Below, piece after piece: positions 1 to 59,465 of a DNA stretch of 64,000 bases. The translations under genes were made by a program, and so were the position numbers. Below the pieces are notes generated by a model that saw only the letters and a program-made list of their open reading frames with translations, did no database searches and had not been told where the DNA came from. How positions within the stretch are numbered: the first letter of the stretch is position 1; the number at the start of each line of letters is the position of its first letter. Source of the DNA: Methanothrix sp. (lineage in GTDB: Archaea; Halobacteriota; Methanosarcinia; Methanotrichales; Methanotrichaceae); contig OY821645.1 of NCBI GenBank assembly GCA_963682135.1, forward strand, positions 2,944,001-3,008,000, given 5' to 3'.

Positions 1-956
1 ACTTTGAATCCAAGAGGATGCTACCGATCTGGAAAGAGATGAAGCAGGAACTGAAAACCGTTCATTCTCAGGTATTGCAGGACGTGGTTCTGAGGGTTAA
101 CCTCGCATTCAGAGCCTTCTTCAAACGGGTTCAATCTGGCGAAGAAGAAGTTGGTTATCCTCGCTTCAAGGGAAAGAACAGATACGATAGCATCAGTTAT
201 CCACAGAGTGGCTTCTACATAGATGGCAACGTGATTTGGTTATCCAAGATTGGTGATATCAAATTCAAGTTGCATCGCCCCATTGATGGATGCATTAAGA
301 GACTGACCATCCGAAGATCATCAACCAAAAAATGGTATGGATCTTTCCTGGTTGAAGATGCCCAAAATCACATTCTGCAACCCTCTGATGAGATGGTCGG
401 CGTGGACATGGGTATCAAGAACTTCGCTGTGCTTTCCAATGGCGAGTTCATCGAGAATCCTAAATTCCTCCTAGCTGATGAAGAAAGACTCAAGAAGGCT
501 CAAAGCAAACGTGACAAGCTGCCAAAAGGATCTGCCAATAGAAGGAAAGCAAGCAAAATTGTAAGTCATCTGCACGAAAGGGTAACCAATCATAGAGAGA
601 ACTTTGCCCAACAACTGAGCCGAGAATGGATCAACAAATATGGAATAATAGCATTTGAAGACCTGAATATAATCAAAATGGTTCATAATCACAACCTAGC
701 GAAGAGCATATTGGATGCTGCTTGGAATAAACTGGTACAATATACTTCATACAAAGCGGAAGATGCTGGTAGGAAAGTAGTATTGGTTAATCCTGCAAAT
801 ACATCTCAGATATGCTCAAGCTGTGGTCAAATAGTCAAAAAGGATCTATCTATCAGAGTCCATAATTGTCCTTATTGTGGATTATCGATAGATAGAGATC
901 TCAATGCTGCTCTTAATATCGCAAGACTGGGGCTACAGTCTTTGGCATCAGCCTAG
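1..956 (+). CDS. tnpB: RNA-guided endonuclease TnpB (IS200/IS605 family, IS1341-like), 5' end outside the window
   Basis: The frame is open from base 3. Motifs: GYPRFK, RuvC-I GVDMG, RuvC-II AFEDL, Zn finger CSSC..CPYC, RuvC-III DRDLNAA. Confidence 0.95.
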   Translation, partial: FESKRMLPIWKEMKQELKTVHSQVLQDVVLRVNLAFRAFFKRVQSGEEEVGYPRFKGKNRYDSISYPQSGFYIDGNVIWLSKIGDIKFKLHRPIDGCIKRLTIRRSSTKKWYGSFLVEDAQNHILQPSDEMVGVDMGIKNFAVLSNGEFIENPKFLLADEERLKKAQSKRDKLPKGSANRRKASKIVSHLHERVTNHRENFAQQLSREWINKYGIIAFEDLNIIKMVHNHNLAKSILDAAWNKLVQYTSYKAEDAGRKVVLVNPANTSQICSSCGQIVKKDLSIRVHNCPYCGLSIDRDLNAALNIARLGLQSLASA

Positions 957-988
957 ATGCCCGCCAATTCATTTGCGGGAGTGGTCAC
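957..988 (+). mobile_element. IS605-family right end / 3' part of the TnpB omegaRNA scaffold
   Basis: Hairpin CCCGC-CAATTCATTT-GCGGG right after the tnpB stop, followed by AGTGGTCAC; the terminal TCAC is typical of these right ends. Confidence 0.7.
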
Positions 989-993
989 TTGAT

Positions 994-2895
994 ATGAAAG
1001 ACAAAAAGCTATTAGAAGAGTTTAGGAAGATTCATCCTGAAAAGTTCGCATCAGAGGATGAGATCTTCTCTCACATCCATGCCGGCGACCGCATCTTCAT
1101 CGGCACGGGCTGCGGCGAGCCGCAGTATCTGGTCTTAGCCTTGGTAAATTACGTCAAGAACCATCCCAAGGCCTTCTTCGATGCCGAGTTGATTCACGTT
1201 TGGACGCTGGGGGTCGCGCCTTACACCGATGAGAAGCTTCAGGAGAACTTCCGGCTCGACTCCTTCTTTGTGGGCGACAGCACCAGAAATTCCGTCAACC
1301 GCGGCGCTGCCGACTACACACCTGTCTTCCTCTCCCAGGTTCCCGACCTCTTCCGCTCAGAGCTCATACCGGTGGATGTGGCCCTCATCCAGACCTCTCT
1401 GCCCGACAAGCACGGCTATTTGAGCCTGGGAATCAGCGTGGATGTGGTCCAATCAGCCGTCGAGATGGCTGAGCTGGTGGTGGCTCAGGTCAATACGAAT
1501 ATGCCTCGCACCCACGGTGACGGTTTCATAAATATTAAAGACATTGATTACATTCTGCCTCATGACGAGCCTCTGCTGGAATATTCGGTCAAAGCGCCAA
1601 ATGACATTGTGCAGAGCATCGGAAGATATGTAGCCCGCATCATCGAAGACGGCTCGACCATCCAGGTGGGCTACGGGCTGATCCCGGATGCAGTAGTTCC
1701 CAATTTGATGGATAAAAAGGATCTGGGAGTTCATACCGAGCTGCTCAGCGACGGCATTGTCAATCTCATGAAGAGAGGGGTTGTCACCAATCGCAAGAAG
1801 ACCCACAACCCCGGCAAGACCATCGCCTCCTTTTGTATGGGAAGCCGTGACACCTACGATTTCCTGGACGAGAATCCCGCTGTGGAATTCAAACGGATCG
1901 ATTACACCAACCATCCCCTCATCATTGCCCGCAACCGGCTCATGACTGCTATCAACAGCGCTATGGAGTTGGATCTGACCGGTCAGGCCACGGCAGAGTC
2001 GCTGGGCGGAACCTTCTACAGCGGCATCGGCGGACAGGCGGATTTCATGCGGGGAGCAGTTCTGGCTCCGGGAGGAAAGACCATCCTGGCTCTGCCCTCC
2101 ACTGCTTTGAATGAGAGCGTCTCTCGAATTGTTCCCACGCTTCAGGATGGGGCGGGAGCCACCCTGAACCGGGGAGATATTCGCTATGTAGTAACTGAAT
2201 ATGGCATTGCCTATCTGCACGGCAAGAACATTCGGGAGAGAGCCATGGATCTCATCGCCATCGCTCATCCTAAATTTCGGCCCTGGCTTATGGAGACAGC
2301 CCGCAAGAGGGCTCTCATCTACAAAGATCAGGTCTTCATTCCCGGAGAGAAGGGAATCTATCCAGAGGAGCTGGAGATCTACAGGACCACCCGCAAAGGA
2401 CTCAATCTGCTTATGCGGCCTGCCAAGATCACGGACGAGTCGCTGCTAAAAGACTTCTTTTATGATCTATCAGAGGATAGCCTTTACAAGCGTTTCTTCT
2501 CGGTTCGAAAAGACATGCCTCACAAGAGGCTGCAGGATTTCGTGGCTGTGGACTACAGCAAAAAGATGGAGATATTAGCCACGATTGTGGAGAAGGAAAA
2601 AGAGATCATTATCGGCCTGGGTCAGTATGAGCTTAATTCGGATATGCATTCGGCAGAGGTCGCCATGGTGGTAAGCGACAAGTTCCAGGGGCTGGGCATA
2701 GGCAGAGAGCTTCTTTCCTATCTAATCTATCTGGCAAAAAGGCAGGGATTGCTCGGGTTTACAGGAGAGGTGCTGGTGGAAAATAGATCTATGGTGGGCC
2801 TCTTCGAGAAGATGGGATTTGATACCGAGAAGAGGAGCGAAGAGGAGGTTTATGAGATGCGCATGTGGTTTAGCAGAAGAGGGGAGCGGGAATAG
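994..2895 (+). CDS. Acetyl-CoA hydrolase/transferase fused to a C-terminal GNAT acetyltransferase
   Basis: GTGCGEP, GVHTE, GIGGQADF and VVTEYGIA motifs; GNAT VSDKFQGLGIG. The start was moved to ATG 994 (MKDKK) because the upstream part overlaps tnpB. Confidence 0.9.
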   Translation: MKDKKLLEEFRKIHPEKFASEDEIFSHIHAGDRIFIGTGCGEPQYLVLALVNYVKNHPKAFFDAELIHVWTLGVAPYTDEKLQENFRLDSFFVGDSTRNSVNRGAADYTPVFLSQVPDLFRSELIPVDVALIQTSLPDKHGYLSLGISVDVVQSAVEMAELVVAQVNTNMPRTHGDGFINIKDIDYILPHDEPLLEYSVKAPNDIVQSIGRYVARIIEDGSTIQVGYGLIPDAVVPNLMDKKDLGVHTELLSDGIVNLMKRGVVTNRKKTHNPGKTIASFCMGSRDTYDFLDENPAVEFKRIDYTNHPLIIARNRLMTAINSAMELDLTGQATAESLGGTFYSGIGGQADFMRGAVLAPGGKTILALPSTALNESVSRIVPTLQDGAGATLNRGDIRYVVTEYGIAYLHGKNIRERAMDLIAIAHPKFRPWLMETARKRALIYKDQVFIPGEKGIYPEELEIYRTTRKGLNLLMRPAKITDESLLKDFFYDLSEDSLYKRFFSVRKDMPHKRLQDFVAVDYSKKMEILATIVEKEKEIIIGLGQYELNSDMHSAEVAMVVSDKFQGLGIGRELLSYLIYLAKRQGLLGFTGEVLVENRSMVGLFEKMGFDTEKRSEEEVYEMRMWFSRRGERE

Positions 2896-5564: not shown

Positions 5565-6450
5565 ATTTCCATTTCTGAAAAGAAGTGGCTCCATTGAAAC
5601 TGGCTTCAATCGGCCTTAAGTGTTTTCCCTGCAGCCACATTTCCATTTCTGAAAAGAAGTGGCTCCATTGAAACCCCTGTGGAGACAATGTAGTGGCCAA
5701 CGCAAATCGATTAATTTCCATTTCTGAAAAGAAGTGGCTCCATTGAAACCAGATAGCTGGAAACCGTAATTTACTGCCCCGGCTGGCATTTCCATTTCTG
5801 AAAAGAAGTGGCTCCATTGAAACCAGATAGCTGGAAACCGTAATTTACTGCCCCGGCTGGCATTTCCATTTCTGAAAAGAAGTGGCTCCATTGAAACCGC
5901 ACAAAAAGATAATGTATGAGATATAACAGTTGGTACAGTTGATTTCCATTTCTGAAAAGAAGTGGCTCCATTGAAACTCATTCTATTTTCATCATCGTTC
6001 CAAACAATGGACTCATACCATTTCCATTTCTGAAAAGAAGTGGCTCCATTGAAACGCTGTTTCATCGCTCTCTCCATTTTTTCGCAAGGAATACCAAATA
6101 TTTCCATTTCTAAAAAGAAGTGGCTCCATTGAAACACCTCTTTGATTGTATTTTCTCCACCACCCCTTAAATGCTCATTTCCATTTCTGAAAAGAAGTGG
6201 CTCCATTGAAACGCGCGAACAGCAGAATCAAAATCTTATATTCGTCTCTCACATTTCCATTTCTGAAAAGAAGTGGCTCCATTGAAACTCAATTGCGTCC
6301 TTGTTTTTTGTTGTGGTCATAACATCCTCTCCAATTTCCATTTCTGAAAAGAAGTGGCACCATTGAAACAAGCAAAGCTCTTCTCGCGGCTCATCAACTT
6401 TTTCTTTAGCCTAATTTCCATTTCTGAAAAGACGTGGCTCAAATTGAGAC
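5565..6450 (+). CRISPR. CRISPR array: 12 repeats (36 bp, ATTTCCATTTCTGAAAAGAAGTGGCTCCATTGAAAC), 11 spacers of 38-45 nt
   Basis: Repeats start at 5565, 5639, 5714, 5788, 5862, 5942, 6020, 6100, 6177, 6253, 6334 and 6414 (degenerate terminal). The 3' ATTGAAAC handle, upstream leader and distal degeneration give + orientation. Spacers 3 and 4 are identical. Confidence 0.98.
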
Positions 6451-45576: not shown

Positions 45577-46896
45577 ATGGCGCCTGAGTTCTACGACATC
45601 CGAACCCTGCGCGGCAGTAGGACCAGGATTGTCCTGGACAACGGAAAGCTGGAAGAGATTAACCAGGCCCCTTTCCAGGGCGCGGCTGTGCGAGCTCTTT
45701 TTGGAGGGGCCTGGGGTTTTGTTACCACGGATAGTGTGACAGATCTGGGGGAGGATGTCGCTCTGGCCAAACGCATCGCCCGGAAGATTGACCGGCGCGA
45801 TGATCTCACGCTGGCCCGGGCCCCACCGGGTAGAAGCGTCGTAGTTCCGGTTAAAAAAGATCCCAAGGACATTTCCCTGGAGGAAAAGGTGGCGCTGCTG
45901 CGAGAGATTGAAGACGCAGCTAAAGTGAAAGGCGTAACCTCGACTCAGGCCGTCTATGCGGAAATGGATTTCACCATGCATTATAGTAGCTCTGAGGGCC
46001 TGGATCTGGAGGCAAAGACGACGCGTATGGGTTTTGTCATCAGCGCTGTGGCCCACAGAAACGGACTGTACCAGACGGATGGAGAGGGTCGGTCCGGAGT
46101 GGGAGGCCTGGAGCTCTTTGACCGGGAAGACCCCATTGCCCTGGCTAGAGTTGTAGGAGAGACGGCGGTAGCCCTTCTGGACGCAAAAGCGCCCAAGGGC
46201 GGAACCTATCCCGTTCTCCTTGATCAGGAGCTGGCCGGAGTCTTCGTTCATGAGGCAGTGGGTCATGCCACTGAGGGAGATATCATCCTGGAGGGCGACT
46301 CCTGTTTGGAAGGAAAGCTGGGCCAGAAGATCGGATCGGAATTGGTGACGGTCAAGGACGATCCCAGTCTGATGAATAACGGCTACTATCCCTTTGACGA
46401 CGAGGGAAGCCTTGCTCAGGAAACGGTATTGGTAGAAAACGGTATCCTCAAGTCTTATCTCAATTCTCGCGAGACGGCTGCGCGGTTAGGCGGCGTGCCG
46501 CGCAATGCCCGCGCTGAGGGACTGGACCGGCCGGTGGTGCGTATGAGCAACACCTACATCGCCAATGGCGACTGGAAGCTGGAAGAGATGCTGAGCGAAC
46601 TGGGAGATGGCGTCTACCTGGCAGGTAGTCGTGGGGGCCAGGTGAGCACGGGCGAGGGCGTCTTCCAATTCAATGCCAAGAGAGGCTATCTGGTGGAAAA
46701 GGGCGAGAAGACCAGGCTATTGCGCGATGTCTCGTTATCCGGCAAGATCCTGGAGACTCTGCTGCATGTGCGCGCGGTGGGAAATGATCTGAAGTTCAAC
46801 AGCGGGCGCTGCGGAAAAGCAGGACAGCTTGTGCCCGTGAGCGACGGTTCGCCGCACCTCCTGGTGGCCGAGGCGACGGTGGGCGGAGCGGGATAG
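45577..46896 (+). CDS. tldD: TldD/PmbA family metalloprotease (TldD)
   Basis: HEAVGH, DDEG, RMSNT, CGK.GQ.VPV..G.PH. Confidence 0.93.
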   Translation: MAPEFYDIRTLRGSRTRIVLDNGKLEEINQAPFQGAAVRALFGGAWGFVTTDSVTDLGEDVALAKRIARKIDRRDDLTLARAPPGRSVVVPVKKDPKDISLEEKVALLREIEDAAKVKGVTSTQAVYAEMDFTMHYSSSEGLDLEAKTTRMGFVISAVAHRNGLYQTDGEGRSGVGGLELFDREDPIALARVVGETAVALLDAKAPKGGTYPVLLDQELAGVFVHEAVGHATEGDIILEGDSCLEGKLGQKIGSELVTVKDDPSLMNNGYYPFDDEGSLAQETVLVENGILKSYLNSRETAARLGGVPRNARAEGLDRPVVRMSNTYIANGDWKLEEMLSELGDGVYLAGSRGGQVSTGEGVFQFNAKRGYLVEKGEKTRLLRDVSLSGKILETLLHVRAVGNDLKFNSGRCGKAGQLVPVSDGSPHLLVAEATVGGAG

Positions 46897-47000
46897 AAAT
46901 GGACCTTCTCAATTTATTTTTCTATTTTATTAATGGTTTCTTTAAGTTAAGTGGTATTAGAAGCATAATTTAAATGAGATTATAGCGAACATGAGGGATA

Positions 47001-47720
47001 ATGGTGGCGACCGAAATTCCAATGCAAGTAAAATTTCATCAGATATTGGCCCTTACGTTTCCTGGCTTCTTTTCCGCGGTAACATTTTTCATGTTGATTG
47101 ATCTATGGAGTCCATTAAATCTTACATCTTATGTATTTGGTGAGACTTCAAGAATTATCGCATTTATTGGATTGGTATTTGTTATAGGAACTATGTTTGG
47201 CATCATAAATGATGGGATTAACCATTTGATTATTGAAGGTGTTTTCTTCGATAGATCTCAGAAAATAATTAAAATAAAGGCTTGCATTAGACATGCTGTT
47301 AAAGATTATTACCTAAATATTTTGCATAAACGTTTGACTTGTGCAAATGAAATAATGAGTTGTGAAACATGTGCTCATAATAATAATTGCAATTTGAATG
47401 AATTGATTCTAAACGACTACTATATATTCAGCAAAGATATTACTAAATATATCTCTATTGATGCGCATCTCAATGAAGAATATTATTGCTATTGTAGCTT
47501 TTATTCTAACTCATTTATTTCATTGGTATTTTTCGCTGTAGTATCGCCGAGTTATTTTCATGGATCCTTTGGCATCGGATGGGGACAGGCTTTGCTATTA
47601 TGCGCCATCACGCTGATTTTGTCTGGATTAGGCCTCTATAGCAGTTTTAATACATATATCTACTATTATCGGGCATTATACTCAATAATTAGGGGATATG
47701 TCGATACGCAAGACATTTAG
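47001..47720 (+). CDS. AT-rich hypothetical membrane protein (about 4 TM)
   Basis: 239-aa ORF with hydrophobic N- and C-terminal pairs and a central Cys cluster; visibly lower GC than its flanks. Confidence 0.7.
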   Translation: MVATEIPMQVKFHQILALTFPGFFSAVTFFMLIDLWSPLNLTSYVFGETSRIIAFIGLVFVIGTMFGIINDGINHLIIEGVFFDRSQKIIKIKACIRHAVKDYYLNILHKRLTCANEIMSCETCAHNNNCNLNELILNDYYIFSKDITKYISIDAHLNEEYYCYCSFYSNSFISLVFFAVVSPSYFHGSFGIGWGQALLLCAITLILSGLGLYSSFNTYIYYYRALYSIIRGYVDTQDI

Positions 47721-48026
47721 CTGGATGCTCGCGAAATCAAGTGTTTCCAAGAGATCAGCACAGTATTTGTCGCTAGTGATCGATCGACGTATCTGCCTAT
47801 AGCTTGGGGTATTATGGGCGTGGCGAGATAGCTCTTGCAAGCTCTGCAAATTTGACCAATTGCTTTTGCTCTATCTAAATCTAACAGAACTTGAGCGTAA
47901 CTGTTTTGTGGAGCGATATGTGCGATCTTCCTTGATGATTGCATATCGGTAGCGGCTGAGATTCTACTGGCGGGTACTATTGTGGTGGTTTTCCCTCCTA
48001 ATTGCATCCCTCTTTTATCCGCCATC

Positions 48027-48517: not shown

Positions 48518-49988
<1,471 letters not shown>

Positions 49989-50114
49989 AACGTTATTGGG
50001 TATGCGAAACTGCATACCCGTCCCCTTAACCAGTTGGAAGCTGAAAATGTCGACCGAGACCAAACAAGAGAAATTAGCCAGCTATTCTGATTATTAGCTG
50101 GGCAATGATAACCC

Positions 50115-50187
50115 GGGCTTGTAGCTCAGCTGGTAGAGCGCCGCCTTTGCAAGGCGGAGGCCCTGGGTTCGAATCCCAGCAAGTCCA
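50115..50187 (+). tRNA. tRNA-Ala(TGC)
   Basis: GGGCTTG..CAAGTCCA acceptor, CCGCC-TTTGCAA-GGCGG anticodon arm, GGTTCGAATCC; lies in the 16S-23S spacer. Confidence 0.97.
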
Positions 50188-50314
50188 AATTCATATGCAC
50201 ACATTGAGGCAGACTCGATGTGGAAGGGCAGAGGTCCGTTCATTGACGGGACGGTCCTGTGAAGCCGTGCACAAGCTTTGCGACCAGACGCTCACTGAGT
50301 TTAGTGGGGCATAA

Positions 50315-53206
<2,892 letters not shown>

Positions 53207-53258
53207 GCCCCGCTAAACTCGGGCGAAATCTGGTCGCAAAGCATAAATTGTGCATTAC

Positions 53259-53316
53259 TCCACGGTAAGCTTCCAACGGGGAAGCAATTACTGCCGGTTC
53301 GAATCCGGACCATGGA
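53259..53316 (+). ncRNA. tRNA-like processing element upstream of 5S rRNA
   Basis: TCCACGGT/ACCATGGA acceptor-like stem, GCTTCC/GGAAGC hairpin, T-arm CCGG-TTCGAAT-CCGG; no anticodon cloverleaf. Confidence 0.65.
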
Positions 53317-53319
53317 TTC

Positions 53320-53446
53320 GAGCATAGCGGCCAGAGCGACAGGGAGACTCCTGAACCCATTCCGAACTCAGAAGATAAGCCTGCCCACGTTCTGCACTGT
53401 ACTCAGATGCGCGAGCTCTCGGGAAATGCAGATCGCTGCTATGCTC
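53320..53446 (+). rRNA. rrf: 5S rRNA
   Basis: GAGCATAGCGGCC..CCCATTCCGAAC..GCTGCTATGCTC, with terminal pairing. Confidence 0.95.
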
Positions 53447-53567: not shown

Positions 53568-56500
53568 TTATCCCGTATGTGCGCCTTCCTTACCTGATTC
53601 CTTCTTAAGTCGTGCGAGACTATTTTGAACGATGCCCACGCTGTATTCATCCTTGAATTCTTTGAGGATCGCTAGCGCCTTCTGGTAGTAATCCTCGGCT
53701 TCGTCCCATTTTCGCTGCTCTTCGGCCACCCTGCCCAGTTGATGGTAGGTGCTGGCCTGGCTGTAGCGGTCGTTGAATTCTATCTTGATTCTCAGAGCCT
53801 TCTGGTAGTAATCCTCGGCCTCGTCCCATTTTCGCTGCTCTTCGGCCACATTGCCCAGTTGGTGGTAGGTGCTGGCCTGGCTGTAGCGGTCGTTGAATTC
53901 TATCTTGATTCTCAGAGCCTTCTGGTAGTAATCCTCGGCCTCATCCCATTTTCGCTGCTCCTGGGCCACCCTGCCCAGTTGGTGGTAGGTGCTGGCCTGG
54001 CTGTAGCGGTCGTTGAATTCTATCTCGATTCTCAGAGCCTTCTGGTAGTAATCCTCGGCTTCGTCCCATTTTCGCTGCTCCTGGGCAACCATGCCCAGTT
54101 GGTGGTAGACGCGAGCCTTATCGTAATTAGCGTTTAATTCAAAACATATTTTCAGAGCCTTCTGGTAGTAATCCTCGGCCTTGTCCCATTTTCGCTGCTC
54201 CTGGGCCACACTGCCCAGTTGGTGGTAGGTGCCAGCCTGCCCGTAGCGGTCGTTGAATTCGATATAGATTTTCAGAGCCTTCTGGTAGTAATCCTCGGCC
54301 TCGTCCCATTTTCGCTGCTCCTCGGCCACCCTGCCCAGTTGGTGGTAGGTGCCAGCCTGCTCGTAGCGGTCGTTGAATTCGATAAAGATTTTCAGAGCCT
54401 TCTGGTAGTAATCCTCGGCATCGTTCCATTTTCGCTGCGCTTGGGCAACCATGCCCAGTTGGTGGTAGACGCCCGCACATATTTTCTCTTGTTTCTCATC
54501 TATAATGTCTGAGTCATCATGCAGGAAATTGAGAATATCTTGATATAATTTCTGGGAGCTGGTATAATCTTTGAGCATTAGATGTCTCAATGCAGCATTA
54601 TCCATAATAGCGATAAATTCGAGTCTAAGACTATCATTCTTGGCAAGACCCGAATATCCCTTAATCTTCTCGATAACCTTTTGGCCCATCTTAAGGCCGA
54701 GCGAATGGTTCTGATGAATGTCATAGTATTGGGATAGAGCCGTGTAGATGGATAAAACAGGAGCCTTGGCCTTGAGAGCCATATCCAGAGCCATGGACAG
54801 ATTCTCAAACTCCAGCTCCATTAATATCTGTCCCGTTTTTTTCTCTTTGGGATCATTCGATCTGTTGAGATGGCCAATGTTTTGAGCTATAAGATTGTAG
54901 AGTTTATAGAAGGCGATTTCCACGGAAGCCTTGAATTGTGCATCTTCTCTGTTCAGGCGGGTGGAAAGAAAATAGGGAAACGTAGGCTGCAACCTCAAAA
55001 ATCCTTGAATCTCGTGCATAGTGGCCAGACCCCAGCGCCCGACCTGGCCCAAGACATCCTGCCAGCGATCAAAGGGAAGCGCTGAGAGAGTGGGCTGCTC
55101 CTTTAGAAAACTGGTGTACTCACCCAGAGTGTATGCGGGTAGAATGCTCGTAAAAGGAGCGAGGCAGAGTAGCAGCCTCTGATCCTCGGCTGAGAGATTG
55201 CTGTGGGAATAGTCGATGCATTTCAATATGCTCTTGGTCTTATCCTGAGTATCCTTCTGATCCAGCCCTTCTTTTCCCAGCCGCAGAGTCTCCATAACCT
55301 GGGCCGGGGTTTGAGACCGCAGATTGGAGAGGACCACCTGGATAGCCAGAGGATAGCCACTCAGGATCTTCATCAGCCGGGAAAGCTCATCGCTTCGCAT
55401 ATATTCCTCTCTGATATCTGGATCGGAAATATTTCTCTCCAGGACTCTCTGGGCCAGATCCGAGGCTGCCTCGGGGTCCAGGCCCTCCAGCTCATAAAGA
55501 TCGCTGGAGTGCAGCGGCCCGTCATGACCGTCCATCAGCCAGTCCTCGCCTCCTCTGGTTCCAAATAGTACCAGGCTCCTGCCTCCTGCCAGCTCCTTCA
55601 AAAAACTGCAAAGCTCCTGGCGCTCTTCTTCCGAGAGCGTATTCTTGATGGCCAGGCCTTCGCCCGTAACCGACTCAAGATTGTCCAGAATCAGGAGGTG
55701 CCTCTGCTTCTGGCTCTGCAGGCCGGAAGCAACTTTTTGAATCTGAGCAGCTATTGGCATGGCCTGAAAGCTCAGTAGCTCAAAGCTCGGCCTTCCCGAT
55801 GCTTCAACCTTCGGCCCGTAGAGCTTCTGGGCAAGGGTCTGCAAGATCTCCTCTAACTTCCAGGCTTTCTCATCATAGCCGAAATAGGAGACTTCGCCCG
55901 CCAGTCCGGTGGTCTGCCACCATCGAGCCAGATGCCTGAGCAAAGCGGTCTTGCCTGATCCTCCCATGCCTTTGATAAGCAGAAGATTTCGTTCTGATCC
56001 CTCCCTTGGCAAGAGCAGCTTTCTCTCGATTCTCAATACATCAAGGTCTCTGCCTACGAAACCATAGACCGTTTCCGCCTCTCTGCAAACATTAGCTCTC
56101 TGGCAATTGAAGTCATACTCCTCCTGAGGTGTAAAGGAGCGACGGTCTAAGGGATTCTCGCCCATTATTCCTTGCTGATAAACAACAGGCAGCATCCAGT
56201 CCTCCAGGTCGATGCTCTGATTATAGTGAGCCCTGCGGCCTTTATCGGCAGATAGGGCGAATCTGGCCTTTTGCAGGGCAGAGTTTAGGTCATTTCCTTC
56301 CATGATCCGCTGGTAGAGGGCGGACATCATGATCCGGGCAGCACTGACGGTAACTGAATAGCTCATGCCCAGAGCAACCTTCACTCCAGCCTGGAGGAGC
56401 TGGCTAGCCATGACTGTCTCTACGCCCCCTACCTGTTTGCCGGATTGGCATGCATTGATAATAGCCACTGGTATGGAATAATGCTGGAATATCCTGTCTG

Positions 56501-57341
56501 CCAGCTCCTGAGCAGAAGTGGGTTCTGGAAGCTCCTTCTTCTCCGACTCGAAGAAGATGAAGGCTCTATGGCCGGGGAACTCAGAGATGTCCACTCGCCC
56601 CCAGCGGGCCTGGAAGAGGAGTCTGTCTGCTTCGCGCGCTTTCTGGAGGTCTTGATAGGTCAGGACGGCGCCATGCAGATCGAAATGAAGGACATGATAA
56701 TAGCCAGGGCCTTTACGATCCAGGTGCTCTGCCAGGGCCCTGAATGTTCCTGGCCGGACCAGGTCGATGCTGACCGGGATTCCTGATTTTTGCATTGATT
56801 CCACGAGTGGTCGGGAGATGGTTCGATAACTGATATCTTCTCCTTCCTTTGGCCTGGAAGTGATCAGCAGGATGTTGAGGGTCGGTGATGGTTTTGTACT
56901 GGCGGCAAATGATGAAGCCTTAAATGTTCTCCTGATCATGGCCGATCGAACGGAGAATGGATCGGAAAGTTTTGGATCTTTGAGGGCCTCCCAATGAAGG
57001 CTATGAATATTTTCCGGTGAGCCTATGATCTCAAAGGCCAGATGTTGCAAGCCGGATTGCGTTGCCTGTTTGTAGCTGGTGTAGAGATCAATGTCGGAAA
57101 AGAGCTGTGCAAAAAGAGCTTCGCCATAATCCTGGATACTTTTTGCGGCCTGCAAAGCTCTCTTCTGGCCGGTAAACGGAAATCTTAGATGCTCCTCGAA
57201 GTACCATACCAGTTCCTTTTCTTGAGCATCGCTGAATGGACTCTTTACTGCGGTTTTGAATTCGCCCCGGCCATCTATGCTCAGGACAACGTTGGGCTCA
57301 TCATTTAAAGCCGCAATCTCGCGAATGGTTATCAAGGGCAT
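53568..57341 (-). CDS. CHAT (caspase-like) protease - STAND/NB-ARC-like NTPase - TPR protein
   Basis: CHAT LHWE, His VLHFDLHG, Cys INACQSG, DW..PVVY; Walker A GMGGSGKT, Walker B LLILDNLE, GYPLA; C-terminal TPRs. Likely start MPLIT at 57341. Confidence 0.9.
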   Translation of the reverse strand: MPLITIREIAALNDEPNVVLSIDGRGEFKTAVKSPFSDAQEKELVWYFEEHLRFPFTGQKRALQAAKSIQDYGEALFAQLFSDIDLYTSYKQATQSGLQHLAFEIIGSPENIHSLHWEALKDPKLSDPFSVRSAMIRRTFKASSFAASTKPSPTLNILLITSRPKEGEDISYRTISRPLVESMQKSGIPVSIDLVRPGTFRALAEHLDRKGPGYYHVLHFDLHGAVLTYQDLQKAREADRLLFQARWGRVDISEFPGHRAFIFFESEKKELPEPTSAQELADRIFQHYSIPVAIINACQSGKQVGGVETVMASQLLQAGVKVALGMSYSVTVSAARIMMSALYQRIMEGNDLNSALQKARFALSADKGRRAHYNQSIDLEDWMLPVVYQQGIMGENPLDRRSFTPQEEYDFNCQRANVCREAETVYGFVGRDLDVLRIERKLLLPREGSERNLLLIKGMGGSGKTALLRHLARWWQTTGLAGEVSYFGYDEKAWKLEEILQTLAQKLYGPKVEASGRPSFELLSFQAMPIAAQIQKVASGLQSQKQRHLLILDNLESVTGEGLAIKNTLSEEERQELCSFLKELAGGRSLVLFGTRGGEDWLMDGHDGPLHSSDLYELEGLDPEAASDLAQRVLERNISDPDIREEYMRSDELSRLMKILSGYPLAIQVVLSNLRSQTPAQVMETLRLGKEGLDQKDTQDKTKSILKCIDYSHSNLSAEDQRLLLCLAPFTSILPAYTLGEYTSFLKEQPTLSALPFDRWQDVLGQVGRWGLATMHEIQGFLRLQPTFPYFLSTRLNREDAQFKASVEIAFYKLYNLIAQNIGHLNRSNDPKEKKTGQILMELEFENLSMALDMALKAKAPVLSIYTALSQYYDIHQNHSLGLKMGQKVIEKIKGYSGLAKNDSLRLEFIAIMDNAALRHLMLKDYTSSQKLYQDILNFLHDDSDIIDEKQEKICAGVYHQLGMVAQAQRKWNDAEDYYQKALKIFIEFNDRYEQAGTYHQLGRVAEEQRKWDEAEDYYQKALKIYIEFNDRYGQAGTYHQLGSVAQEQRKWDKAEDYYQKALKICFELNANYDKARVYHQLGMVAQEQRKWDEAEDYYQKALRIEIEFNDRYSQASTYHQLGRVAQEQRKWDEAEDYYQKALRIKIEFNDRYSQASTYHQLGNVAEEQRKWDEAEDYYQKALRIKIEFNDRYSQASTYHQLGRVAEEQRKWDEAEDYYQKALAILKEFKDEYSVGIVQNSLARLKKESGKEGAHTG
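53640..54477 (-). repeat. Seven near-identical 120-bp (40-aa) TPR repeats
   Basis: YHQLG.VA..QRKW..AEDYYQKAL repeated 7 times with 120-nt periodicity. Confidence 0.95.
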
Positions 57342-57348
57342 CGAAATT

Positions 57349-57681
57349 CTACTCCTGATCAGGAGTGACAACTATTATTTGCCCTTCATAATTATTAATT
57401 ATATTGATTGAGATATTGCCTGGTTTTTCAGGGGCTTGCTTCTCGAAAATCGATTTTATTTTATCTTTGATTAAATCCTTTATGAGATCGAGAGCTATAG
57501 CTCCAGCCACTGTCTGGAGGAGTATGAGCGCTTGATCCGGCGACATGCTAAAGGCATCTTTAGAGTATTTGATCTCTTCAGCCTTGCCTGCGTAAAGAGA
57601 TTTGGGATCCGAATTCCACATAGCAACGAAGTCATGCGAATTGATATTCAGATCTGGTGAAAGCGCTATCTTATATTCCAT
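57349..57681 (-). CDS. Small protein encoded 7 nt upstream of the CHAT-STAND-TPR gene
   Basis: 110 aa; central hydrophobic/amphipathic helix ALILLQTVAGAIALDLIKDLIKDKIK and beta-rich tail. Confidence 0.75.
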   Translation of the reverse strand: MEYKIALSPDLNINSHDFVAMWNSDPKSLYAGKAEEIKYSKDAFSMSPDQALILLQTVAGAIALDLIKDLIKDKIKSIFEKQAPEKPGNISINIINNYEGQIIVVTPDQE

Positions 57682-57779: not shown

Positions 57780-57914
57780 CTATTTCTTTAATGCGGCAAT
57801 GAATTCTTTTCTCTCCAGCTTAGCCTGCTTCATAATCGAGATCAATGTGCCTTTCGCCAGCTCTCGGTGATTCGGCACGGTAACGACAAGATTTCTTTCT
57901 TCATAGTAGAGTAA
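57780..57914 (-). pseudogene. hicA: HicA toxin C-terminal remnant
   Basis: LLYYEERNLVVTVPNHRELAKGTLISIMKQAKLERKEF..*; the N-terminal half with GSH is missing and an in-frame TAA sits at 57915-57917. Confidence 0.8.
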
Positions 57915-59465
57915 TTAGGTATCCATTCAGACTCTAAACGCCCATGATCCTTAAGGCTCATACGTGGCGGATGAAAAACCTCTCATGCTTTGTTAGCTAT
58001 GTTTAGTCTGATATGGGCAGTGAAGGCAGTCACCCTTTTCGGACTATGATCCACTTCCCTAAACTAGCCAATAATCCCGCGAATACGGGGCTGCGTCATC
58101 GAACGCGTATGGGAAATTGCCCCTCTGTGAGGGATTTACCATCTGCCCATATCAGGATTGGGAACATATATGGGCAAACGAAAGAATAGAGTTTGCGGAG
58201 CCGATGTCCATAAAGATATCATAGTTGCCACGATCCAAGACTCTGATGATACCGAATTCCAGGAAAAGTTTGGCACTATCTCGATAGAGCTAGGGAGATT
58301 CAGGGACTGGCTCATCGCCCACAATTGCGAGCAGGTAGCCTTCGAAGCTACTGGAGTTTACTGGTTTCCCGTCTACGATGCTCTAAGTCCTTCTATTGAT
58401 ACCATTGTAGCGAATCCCTGGATGATAAAAGGTATCCCTAGGAATAAATCAGATACTCTTGACTCCAAGTGGATTGCAGGTAACTGCTTAGATGGCAAAA
58501 TTAAGAGGTCACGAGTTCTGCCCAAAAATGGTAGAGACCTGAGGACTTTGACCCGTGCCAGATCGGCATATACCAAGACTCGAACACAGCTAAGGAATAG
58601 AATTCACAAGTATCTGGCGCTTTGCGGGATTACGCTGAGTTCTTACATCTCAGATATCTTCGGGAAATCCGGCAGACATATCTTAGATGGCCTAATAGAA
58701 TCTGAGGATATAGATACGATCATGGACGGCATACCTTCTGGAAAAGTCAAGAAAAAGCGAGAGCCTATCAAAGCATCTCTTGGAAATGGTCTTGATGACG
58801 TTTCAAGAATGCTTATCAAGGATACTCTCGAACTCCTGGATCATCTGGATGAGAAGGTAAATGATACAAGCCTGGAAATACTTGGTAGACTTCAGGAAAG
58901 AGCCAGAGACCTGGCAATAGTCATGTCAGTTCCTGGAATTGGATTCGTATCTGCTTCGATTATTCTGGCAGAGATAGGAGACTATCATGATTTCCAAAAG
59001 TCTGAACAACTAGTAAAATGGTGTGGACTGGCTCCAGGACTAAACGAATCTGCGGGAAAGAAGAGCCCTTGCGGTATCACTAAACAGGGATCCAAGCATC
59101 TCAGAACTATACTTGTGGAGATTGCTCAAGTTGTGGCTAAAATGAGCAAGAACAATCTTTCAAGTTTTTTCCATAGATTGAGGGCTAGAAAGAATTACAA
59201 TGTAGCAATTACTGCTTTGGCCAGAAAATTAATCAGCATAATTTTCCATCTGTTGATTAACCAAGAGCTATATCAAGAAGACAACTGCACTACGGTTAAA
59301 ACAAAACCCATCAAGAAGGATCTCCTCCGCCTATCCAAAGAAGAGCAATTTAAGGATGGTGTAGCTGCAATCGTAGATGCCTTTTATTACTTCAAGAAAA
59401 AATCTTCGTTAGAAGGGGGTGGATAGAACCCCACAAATCCCTCAATTGGAGAAGGGTTTTTCATG
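57915..59465 (+). mobile_element. IS110-family element with ~250-bp non-coding left end (ends approximate)
   Basis: The left boundary coincides with the hicA truncation; the transposase gene is inside; no terminal inverted repeats seen. Confidence 0.7.
58170..59426 (+). CDS. IS110-family DEDD transposase/recombinase
   Basis: GADVHKD, FEATGVYW, KSDTLD (DEDD); SVPGIG, WCGLAP..NESAGK (Ser), ARKL. Confidence 0.95.
   Translation: MGKRKNRVCGADVHKDIIVATIQDSDDTEFQEKFGTISIELGRFRDWLIAHNCEQVAFEATGVYWFPVYDALSPSIDTIVANPWMIKGIPRNKSDTLDSKWIAGNCLDGKIKRSRVLPKNGRDLRTLTRARSAYTKTRTQLRNRIHKYLALCGITLSSYISDIFGKSGRHILDGLIESEDIDTIMDGIPSGKVKKKREPIKASLGNGLDDVSRMLIKDTLELLDHLDEKVNDTSLEILGRLQERARDLAIVMSVPGIGFVSASIILAEIGDYHDFQKSEQLVKWCGLAPGLNESAGKKSPCGITKQGSKHLRTILVEIAQVVAKMSKNNLSSFFHRLRARKNYNVAITALARKLISIIFHLLINQELYQEDNCTTVKTKPIKKDLLRLSKEEQFKDGVAAIVDAFYYFKKKSSLEGGG

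Follow-up and report, generated by a model that had tools for sequence, protein, structure and literature searches.

Two collinear genes on the minus strand of the window (the whole 64,000-nucleotide stretch of DNA analysed) were delimited from the ORF list, the translations and the sequence (Table 1). The small ORF ends with TAG, and 7 nt further on an ATG at 57341 opens a 1257-aa frame ending at 53568, in agreement with the first-pass annotation, which had placed a 110-aa ORF 7 nt upstream of a CHAT gene. The position given there for the pair, between the rRNA operon and a hicA remnant with an IS110 element, was likewise borne out by matches to PF07927, PF01548 and PF02371. The hicA remnant matched PF07927 at 33.6 bits over profile positions 27-58 of 58, and the frame upstream of it was broken by stop codons (translation with three stops). 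An alternative TTG start for the large gene is present at 57371; starting there, the protein would be 10 residues longer and its gene would overlap the small ORF.

Table 1. Coordinates of the gene pair, of the parts of its two products and of the neighbouring features in the window.
Feature	Position	Strand	Basis or remark
EACC1-like small gene	57349..57681	minus	ATG start, 110 aa, coordinates including stop codon; ORF and translation
Small protein, residues 1-49, N-terminal beta-alpha part	57535..57681	minus	Alignment A2; AlphaFold2 E2-7, H15-31, E33-36
Small protein, S47-P48-D49, candidate cleavage region directly ahead of hydrophobic helix	57535..57543	minus	Alignment, AlphaFold2, EACC1 comparison
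Small protein, residues 51-70, hydrophobic segment rich in Gly, Ala, Thr	57472..57531	minus	Hydropathy; conserved columns
Small protein, residues 90-107, C-terminal beta-hairpin	57361..57414	minus	AlphaFold2 strands E90-97 and E100-107, both models
Spacer between small gene and CHAT gene	57342..57348	minus	7 nt, aatttcg; operon-type spacing
CHAT-STAND-TPR gene	53568..57341	minus	1257 aa, coordinates including stop codon; ORF list, translation, Pfam
Large protein, residues 1-420, beta-rich N-terminal lead-in and CHAT caspase-like protease	56082..57341	minus	Pfam; alignment
Catalytic His223	56673-56675	minus	
Catalytic Cys298	56448-56450	minus	
Large protein, residues 428-714, STAND NTPase	55200..56060	minus	NACHT, NB-ARC, AAA_16 and NPHP3_N matches (Pfam)
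Walker A GMGGSGKT of STAND NTPase	55947-55970	minus	
Large protein, residues about 933-1250, TPR sensor array	53592..54545	minus	TPR_12, 254.6 bits, 6 stretches
rRNA operon (context)	48518-53444		
hicA toxin remnant (context)	57783..57914	minus	C-terminal half only; PF07927
IS110-family transposase gene (context)	58158..59426	plus	PF01548 and PF02371; NF033542 at 247 bits

The large protein was analysed with Pfam and with an alignment of 34 sequences of relatives, and both upheld its earlier description as a protein of about 1257 aa with an intact CHAT His/Cys dyad, a P-loop STAND module and TPRs. The CHAT profile PF12770 matched residues 71-370 at 57.6 bits (curated cut-off, 24), and the catalytic motifs HFDLHG and NACQSG are present and conserved. 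Invariant positions in the alignment were H219, H223, G224 and C298 in the CHAT domain, G458, G461, G463 and K464 in Walker A, and D553 in Walker B (LLILDNLE); the copy in the window has lost none of its catalytic or NTPase residues and is intact. At least 1194 relatives of residues 1-420 were found at E<=1e-20. The TPR array is composed of near-identical 40-residue repeats, and a 120-bp tandem array inside this region (53677-54468; 6.6 copies, 89% matches, no indels) was detected by Tandem Repeats Finder. PADLOC 2.0.0 gave TPR-type matches only for the large protein and no Avs model, the newer Avs families (PMC13581612) being without models in the libraries searched.

The small ORF is a real gene, as its conservation shows: relatives at 32-36% identity keep the frame open in 4 genera of the host's archaeal family, and a profile search at E<=1e-3 recovered a family of 347 representative clusters with members of 100-120 aa. 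Searches of Pfam, NCBIfam and PADLOC gave no match for the small protein. It had been annotated at first pass as a single-helix protein; the hydrophobic helix is present, but AlphaFold2 predicted a small alpha/beta fold around it (pLDDT 75-76; elements E2-7, H15-31, E33-36, E51-56, H64-82, E90-97 and E100-107). W22 and N23 of the N-terminal part are invariant in alignment A2, and residues 1-49 are proposed, by analogy with the EACC1 experiments described below, to act as an autoinhibitory fragment. Across the family, G, A, S and T abound in the hydrophobic segment, and its best 19-residue Kyte-Doolittle window reached 1.6 or more in 43 of the 57 members, the value for the window protein being 1.64; a conserved KD..K motif (K68, D69, K72) follows directly. 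The pattern of the C-terminal hairpin, a hydrophobic strand, a turn (often PDG) and a second hydrophobic strand, is also conserved in A2. We propose the 110-aa protein as a latent membrane effector.

Linkage of the two genes was read at 16 loci, 7 within the host's archaeal order and 9 further ones outside archaea. The small gene was found in 7 of 105 genomes of the order, and in every one of these it is followed by a gene closely related to that of the CHAT protein; among the seven CHAT genes, five extend into or beyond the STAND region and matched CHAT and STAND families, and the other two, cut by contig ends, matched at the N-terminus with 49-95% identity. All six CHAT genes of the order at 49% identity or more came from genomes with the small gene, and no small gene was found in the upstream DNA read for CHAT paralogues at 25-30% identity. 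Outside archaea, a CHAT-type gene lies directly downstream of the small gene in 6 of the 9 loci (L045, L046, L048, L049, L050 and L052). L045 and L048 are decayed copies of the module, and at L045 the CHAT gene is a deleted remnant. The first-pass annotation had asked whether homologues of the small gene lie consistently upstream of CHAT genes, which holds at 13 of the 16 loci and fails at L043/L044 and L047, where no CHAT gene is nearby, and on L051, a very short contig with no CHAT gene beside the small gene. Across lineages, the sole genes in common are the small gene and the CHAT-type gene. The two genes form a dedicated, conserved two-gene module, as the same annotation had claimed in calling the small protein a dedicated partner (7/7 in the archaeal order). 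The window copy has a long branch in a quick tree.

For its candidate immune or cell-death system, the first-pass annotation had also named a match to a described system as a result that would count against it; such a match was found. The pair fits System 4, the two-gene EACC1-caspase system of Kaur, Burroughs, Iyer and Aravind (eLife 2020; PMC7159879), and the system is not new. According to the available text of that paper, EACC1 is encoded by the 5' gene and contains a conserved hydrophobic helix with small residues at its center and alpha+beta extensions on both sides, and the system is linked to a multicellular habit. In the module described here, the 5' gene, whose product is about 110 aa long, is likewise collinear with and directly upstream of the protease gene; this product has one conserved hydrophobic helix with small residues and alpha and beta elements flanking both sides. 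The 3' gene begins with a caspase-superfamily protease (His and Cys), after which come a STAND NTPase and repeats. The distribution, patchy and mobile in filamentous or multicellular prokaryotes, is also alike.

EACC1-KrAvs12 of Ktedonobacter racemifer, whose large component is a caspase-Avs protein, was tested by Evans et al. (bioRxiv, 10.1101/2025.11.14.688446). In the part of the preprint available, EACC1 is reported to be cut by its partner protease near Asp49, the C-terminal fragment suffices for toxicity and makes liposomes leak, deletion of EACC1 abolishes toxicity, and the N-terminal fragment pairs as a sheet with two C-terminal strands. Unlike KrAvs12, in which a shorter caspase domain with Cys152 is fused to Avs12, the protease in the window is a CHAT domain with Cys298. 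The host also differs from the system as described in being an archaeon; archaea are without mention for EACC1 in the accessible portions of Kaur et al. (PMC7159879) and Evans et al. (10.1101/2025.11.14.688446). The small protein has an acidic residue ahead of the helix, where cleavage was reported for EACC1. The columns aligned to this candidate site hold D in 40/57 and P in 50/57 family sequences. Unlike the D-P of the family, the window protein has S-P at these columns, followed by D49; in it and in the two sequences most closely related to it, the consensus Asp column is occupied by Ser, Leu or Pro, and an Asp stands two residues further on. AlphaFold2 confidence is lowest over residues 41-60, and S47-P48-D49 may be the site at which the protease cuts.

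Profile comparison with the Pfam EACC1 family (PF19953) left the window protein unmatched at E<=0.01 and all of 137 members of its family unmatched at E<=1, and it hit nothing in the whole genome of the window at E<=10. An HMM of four archaeal PF19953-type proteins gave 16.4, 13.9 and 11.7 bits, in register, on three of 158 small proteins (nearly all members of the window family), the best of 3318 reversed or shuffled decoys reaching 8.6 bits, and a lead from the ESM Atlas pointed to a cluster at score 0.87 in which PF19953 is carried by 46% of members. These weak profile matches, in register and above every decoy, suggest that the window family is homologous to EACC1; the homology is suggestive and not secure, because hhalign, although it aligned the family with PF19953-type EACC1 in register (P 0.0084), returned a probability of 4.7%. 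Canonical pairs of PF19953-type EACC1 and Peptidase_C14 caspase were found at loci L060 and L061, in the same archaeal family as the host. They resemble the window pair in gene order and small-protein layout, and their small-protein motif GEPITLGLIAL...LDVLKSY...DGAKL is in register with the window family. Unlike the window's protein, their small proteins are of 121-128 aa, have an extra C-terminal helix and score 18-24 bits on PF19953, and their partner lacks a STAND NTPase, its Peptidase_C14 domain being joined to TPR or DUF3417.

From the fit of the pair to the EACC1-caspase system and from the experiments on that system, the small protein is best read as a membrane toxin released by the protease, and the pair is probably an EACC1-caspase-type module of two genes in which a protease gates cell death or defence. 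The 1257-aa protein would be an NLR-like sensor that recognises a trigger through its TPR array, the likeliest trigger being a protein from an invading virus; binding would cause oligomerisation through the STAND NTPase, by which the N-terminal CHAT protease domains would be brought together and become active. The protease would then cut the 110-aa protein in the exposed stretch ahead of the hydrophobic helix, around S47-P48-D49, and so separate the C-terminal part (the Gly/Ala-rich helix and the beta-hairpin) from an N-terminal part that would hold it in a folded, soluble state. Once released, this fragment would assemble into oligomers in the membrane and make it permeable, and the cell would be killed or arrested. 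We infer from the published bacterial EACC1 work what the trigger is, that cleavage takes place and where, and that a pore is formed; here the mechanism would operate in an archaeal ether-lipid membrane.

A different role for the small protein, that of a membrane-inserted sensor or anchor which reports membrane perturbation and activates the caspase, the latter acting on itself or on other proteins, was the original proposal of Kaur et al. (PMC7159879), drawn from the conserved helix with its small-residue patch. The conserved hydrophobic segment and the enzymatic effector domain already carried by the large protein would suit such a role, but the AlphaFold2 monomer is a compact alpha/beta unit and not a membrane-spanning helix, and the results reported for bacterial EACC1 (loss of toxicity on deletion, cleavage by the protease, and a toxic C-terminal fragment that leaks liposomes; 10.1101/2025.11.14.688446) speak against it, so that we consider it unlikely. 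The same mechanism might also serve something other than antiviral defence, either as a stress or damage response removing cells of the filament, or as a decaying mobile passenger with no current role. Non-defence roles are raised in the preprint from EACC1-DnaK fusions (10.1101/2025.11.14.688446), and the multicellular habit tied to the system by Kaur et al. (PMC7159879) agrees with them, but the TPR-STAND proteins tested so far are reported to sense phage proteins (PMC13581612). A passenger is suggested by the decayed copies L045 and L048 and by the long branch of the window copy and its place beside the IS110 element and the hicA remnant, against which that copy keeps every catalytic and NTPase residue; only a slim chance is given to these readings.

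Slimmer still is the chance that the small protein serves to silence the caspase-NLR, as an inhibitor, chaperone or antitoxin, and that the caspase is itself the death effector and cleaves many proteins. Tight operon spacing and strict co-occurrence would also suit a toxin-antitoxin-like pair, and caspase-like proteases with broad targets are cited by Evans et al. (10.1101/2025.11.14.688446). The presence of the small gene without a protease in two loci and its retention beside a gutted protease gene at L045 would both be odd for a dedicated inhibitor, the conserved Gly/Ala-rich hydrophobic helix has no obvious inhibitory role, and the published EACC1 data point the opposite way (10.1101/2025.11.14.688446). 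A Bell/BASS-type amyloid-signalling pair, in which the NLR N-terminus would carry the same motif as the C-terminus of the small protein and be templated by it (Dyrka et al. 2020), is scarcely credible: the layout matches (a small gene collinear with and a few nt from an NLR-like gene in a multicellular prokaryote), and a Methanothrix soehngenii sequence is reported to stand in an alignment figure of Bell-domain proteins, but the NLR here bears its own protease effector, and its N-terminal lead-in also occurs in paralogues without the small gene. A shared motif was sought by local alignment of the last 40 residues of the small protein with the first 45 of the large one, and in 5/5 pairs the alignment was no better than shuffles, the score of the best case being reached by 43 of 500 shuffles.

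The protease-released membrane toxin was compared with further known systems. In bacterial gasdermins with their caspase-like protease and in the type III-E Craspase (Csx29 TPR-CHAT with Csx30), a neighbouring protease cleaves a latent partner and triggers death or a response, a logic that the window pair may share; these parallels, drawn in the first-pass annotation, hold for the logic and not for sequence or size, in which there is no likeness. Gasdermins are of about 240 aa or more. A preprint by Kibby et al. is said to concern antiviral STAND (Avs) and bacterial NLR-related proteins. The large protein resembles these in having an N-terminal effector, a STAND NTPase and a C-terminal TPR-like sensor (as in the available text of PMC13581612), and differs from Avs in matching no PADLOC Avs model and in its array of near-identical repeats.

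What is new in the module is modest, namely the archaeal instance and a CHAT-linked EACC1-like branch unseen by Pfam, and for biology overall it extends a known system as would be expected and brings no surprise. Protease-gated pore formers (gasdermins, now EACC1 and Pepco) represent an immunity logic common to bacteria and eukaryotes, which the intact archaeal copy would carry into the third domain. A bolder reading, held as tentative and rather doubtful, is that the small family is a distinct, Pfam-invisible sister branch of EACC1 that travels specifically with CHAT-STAND-TPR proteins, and that the module was acquired by Methanotrichaceae from bacteria; if true, a pore-forming death effector gated by a protease would for the first time be known to work in the ether-lipid membrane of an archaeon. 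In the window lineage the acidic site is shifted (S-P-D49) and the branch is long, which might then be signs that cleavage or membrane insertion has adapted to the archaeal host. This host is a sheathed, filament-forming methanogen, in which neighbouring cells could be protected when one cell dies. Hundreds of representative clusters of the small protein, encoded beside over a thousand CHAT-STAND-TPR clusters, are invisible to Pfam, NCBIfam and PADLOC, and the modules are therefore at present annotated only as 'hypothetical protein' and 'tetratricopeptide repeat protein'.

The gene pair reported in the first-pass annotation is real, and it is a system of a known, recently characterised kind. 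Both open reading frames lie on the minus strand, with a gap of 7 nt between the end of the small frame and the ATG of the large one, and the claimed catalytic motifs, P-loop and TPRs were borne out by the translations and by Pfam (table). HFDLHG, NACQSG and GMGGSGKT are present in the large protein, and H219, H223, G224, C298, the Walker A residues and D553 were invariant in an alignment of 34 relatives. The final part of the TPR region is made up of 6.6 tandem copies of a 120-bp repeat (89% identical, without indels). The setting between the rRNA operon and a hicA remnant with an IS110-family transposase gene was likewise as described. A sequence search of solved structures with the large protein returned TPR proteins only, and nothing for the first 900 residues. 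The stretch is present as contigs in 5 sequencing runs from 2 studies, and no RNA run was listed for it.

Features of the window locus and of the loci read for gene linkage (L-handles, loci; G-handles, genomes)
Feature or locus	Position	Strand	Description
Small ORF, 110 aa	57349-57681	minus	ATG start; translation
Large ORF, 1257 aa	53568-57341	minus	ATG at 57341; translation
CHAT caspase-like domain	large-protein residues 71-370		Pfam, 57.6 bits (cut-off 24)
STAND-type NTPase	large-protein residues 428-714		Pfam matches NACHT, NB-ARC, AAA_16 and NPHP3_N
TPR_12 repeats	large-protein residues ~933 to 1250		Pfam
rRNA operon	end at 53444		context of the pair
hicA toxin pseudogene	57783-57992	minus	C-terminal half (57783-57914) matches PF07927; upstream frame with three stop codons
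IS110-family transposase gene	58158-59426		followed by CDC48 gene
L049			complete CHAT-STAND-TPR gene downstream of small gene
L048	5394-8920 (large gene)		CHAT-STAND-TPR gene split over three reading frames, beside intact small gene
L046, L050, L052			start of CHAT-type gene downstream, as far as contig end
L045 (G650:C703)	333-1466		decaying large gene (residues 1-178, then last TPRs); intact small gene beside it
L043/L044 (G493, unpublished genome)	5890-6330		small gene without CHAT gene nearby, a peptidase M1 gene taking its place; L043 neighbours are this gene and an RF-1-domain gene
L047	125-442		small gene; no CHAT gene or anything recognisable over next 3 kb
L051			small gene; no CHAT gene seen on a contig too short to judge
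L060	G002:C4:36412-39660		PF19953-type small gene, 121 aa, 22.9 bits, directly upstream of caspase gene
L061	G023:C1:1293334-1296492		PF19953-type small gene, 125 aa, 18.1 bits, directly upstream of caspase gene

The first-pass annotation had named a match to a described system as a refuting outcome, and the pair does match one, the EACC1-caspase two-gene system ('System 4') of Kaur et al. 2020. As set out in that paper, EACC1 is encoded by the 5′ gene, and the 3′ gene opens with a caspase-superfamily peptidase, behind which any of ~50 domains may stand, STAND NTPases and repeats among them (PMC7159879). In a preprint, Evans et al. assayed EACC1 with a caspase-Avs12 protein from Ktedonobacter racemifer; EACC1 and the catalytic cysteine were both required for toxicity, EACC1 was cut by the protease near Asp49 into pieces of 5.7 kDa and 7.1 kDa, only the C-terminal piece was toxic, only cleaved EACC1 caused liposome leakage, and the N-terminal piece was modelled in one sheet with two C-terminal strands (10.1101/2025.11.14.688446). 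Each of these points of EACC1 anatomy has a counterpart in the small-protein family of the window. At the acidic-Pro site, D is found in 40 and P in 50 of 57 aligned family sequences; the consensus Asp is absent from the window's small protein and from its two closest relatives, P0003 and P0004 (S-P in the window protein and P0004, L-P in P0003), and all three carry an Asp two residues later (D49 in the window protein). By this analogy, putative cleavage of the small protein by the large protease to yield a membrane-permeabilising toxin fragment, as first proposed, is the best-supported reading of the pair. Kaur et al. originally viewed the small protein as a sensor or an anchor, a reading made less likely by the experiments on bacterial EACC1 reported in the preprint (10.1101/2025.11.14.688446). 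Novelty is confined to the archaeal host, the CHAT-type partner and a family missed by current domain libraries.

The small ORF is a genuine gene from a large unnamed family. Its product was without match in Pfam, NCBIfam and PADLOC. Among the 105 genomes and 16 genera of the archaeon's order, seven genomes in four genera encode an open-frame relative at 33-95% identity, most of these preceded by a GGAGG-like sequence. A ten-protein profile searched against 1.84 billion representative proteins recovered 347 with E<=1e-3, of which 70 reached E<=1e-10; almost all are 100-125 aa long. In an alignment of 57 members the layout is fixed: an N-terminal strand (M-D-Y-x-I-A-L-S-P-x-L) precedes a helix in which W22 and N23 are invariant, and a linker with [FY]-x-L-D-P at its end leads to a Gly/Ala/Ser/Thr-rich hydrophobic segment that continues into a K-D-x-x-K motif; after this come a basic linker and two hydrophobic strands that form a hairpin with a P-D-G turn. 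In 43 of the 57, hydropathy over the best 19 residues was at least 1.6 (1.64 in the window protein). AlphaFold2 gave the same compact alpha/beta model from 10 or 57 aligned sequences (pLDDT 75.0 and 76.1; pTM 0.65 and 0.70, respectively), with minimum confidence at residues 41-60. The proposed Foldseek comparison, run with this model against the PDB, gave no match at E<=0.001; the best hit of a wide VIA-align search was ribosomal protein eL22 (Z 8.1, background level according to the tool), and a sequence search of solved structures with the family gave no meaningful match. Complex prediction for large-protein residues 1-420 and the small protein, with alignments and without controls, scored 0.30 against a mark of 0.32 and was counted neither way. 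Among individual members, P0036 (284 aa) is fused behind an N-terminal region of ~170 residues without Pfam match, and P0140 and P0141 are longer by ~45 residues at the N-terminus, perhaps through miscalled starts. At L016 (3174) and L017 (6200), both of genus g13, no ATG, GTG or TTG occurs at the aligned start of the small gene, and the nearest start candidate is ATT, two or three codons upstream. The source of member P0081 is named as a multicellular magnetotactic bacterium (Candidatus Magnetomoraceae), in agreement with the reported tie between EACC1 systems and a multicellular way of life.

In all seven genomes of the archaeal order that have the small gene, the gene after it encodes a protein closely related to the large one. 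Five of these partner genes extend into or past the STAND region, with CHAT and STAND family matches, and four of the five, including that of the window, have TPRs; the copy in G034 (L016) ends at a contig edge (876 aa). The other two end earlier at contig edges, their remaining N-terminal parts being 95% and 49% identical. When residues 1-420 were used as the query, CHAT relatives were detected in 17 of the 105 genomes; those at least 49% identical (six, apart from the window's own) were exactly those of the small-gene genomes. CHAT paralogues in the order were 25-30% identical, and no small upstream gene was seen at the nine paralogue loci read, including the second copy in the window's genome. 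That copy (L038, G000:C1:1267372-1268484) is a CHAT-STAND gene with a 1209-aa frame, 28% identical, adjoined, by eye, by an apparent antitoxin and PIN-toxin pair; in total, the window's genome contains five CHAT loci. Outside the archaea nine loci were read, a sample that is small and biased to one subgroup because it derives from a single narrow peptide pattern, taken from a 10-sequence subset and recovering one genome locus and six metagenome loci only. Overall, a CHAT-type gene directly follows the small gene at 13 of 16 loci (7/7 archaeal, 6/9 others), so that the expected position of the small ORF upstream of CHAT genes held at these 13 and failed at L043/L044 and L047, L051 being too short to judge. 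The reading of the small protein as an inhibitor or antitoxin fits poorly, since small genes persist alone or next to a gutted protease gene. Lineage-specific neighbours aside, only the two genes are common to the loci, and their flanks vary by genus (ClC channel, DUF460, ADP-ribosylglycohydrolase, PPDK), which is consistent with a mobile two-gene module.

An amyloid-signalling (Bell/BASS) pair after Dyrka et al. was rejected, as no motif shared between the small C-terminus and the large N-terminus rose above shuffles in five of five pairs. Gasdermin was ruled out by size and by the absence of a Pfam match, and the Craspase reading was also rejected, no CRISPR context being seen next to the two genes; both have only their logic in common with the pair.

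Judging from sequence comparison, the small-protein family is probably a CHAT-linked branch that has diverged within the EACC1 superfamily. The Pfam EACC1 model, PF19953, matched neither the window protein nor 137 family members (E<=1), nor anything in the window's genome (E<=10), and against 401 genomes of the phylum gave two sub-threshold matches, both inside long ORFs. PF19953-type proteins of 121-128 aa occur in the same archaeal family at 18-24 bits (cut-off 23.6); at L060 and L061 the partner is a Peptidase_C14 caspase to which TPR or DUF3417 is fused, so the classical EACC1-caspase system occurs in this archaeal family too. Of 158 small proteins, nearly all from the family, three scored 16.4, 13.9 and 11.7 bits with an HMM of four PF19953-type proteins, GEPITLGLIAL standing opposite YEPITLTLIAF in one alignment, against a maximum of 8.6 bits on 3318 reversed or shuffled decoys. 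In hhalign, the hydrophobic helix and hairpin of the two alignments were in register, with a probability of only 4.7% (P 0.0084). An ESM Atlas cluster at score 0.87, with PF19953 on 46% of its members, is a lead only. When the family alignment was used in a word-indexed protein search, the 14 proteins returned all lacked Pfam domains and hence offered no bridge to PF19953. PF19953-type small genes also follow a long HEAT-repeat gene, with no adjoining caspase gene, at L059 (G058:C271, 1420-1806, 23.9 bits) and L053 (G073:C49, 1426-1809, 20.9 bits), a different neighbourhood for EACC1-like genes.

At least 1194 relatives of large-protein residues 1-420 were found at E<=1e-20. The best 120 of these were 46-52% identical, were annotated only as 'TPR repeat protein' or 'CHAT domain-containing protein', and had source names including Chloroflexi, Anaerolineae, Ktedonobacteraceae, Blastocatellia, Desulfobacterales and Methanothrix. 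In a quick tree of 19 sequences, with 11 named bacterial proteins out of the at least 1194 relatives, six archaeal copies and one Desulfobacterales protein formed one clade (SH-aLRT 99) nested among bacterial copies, with the window copy on a long branch; this position tentatively suggests that the module was acquired from bacteria. Related genomes share the CDC48 gene and nothing to the left of it, so no empty insertion site is definable in them. An IS110-family transposase gene lies less than 2 kb from the pair both in the window and at L015 (12376-13635; G003, another genus), which may be chance or a hint at the module's mode of movement. Just upstream of the rRNA operon, G+C falls to 0.37-0.43 at window positions 46500-48000, from ~0.54 on either side.
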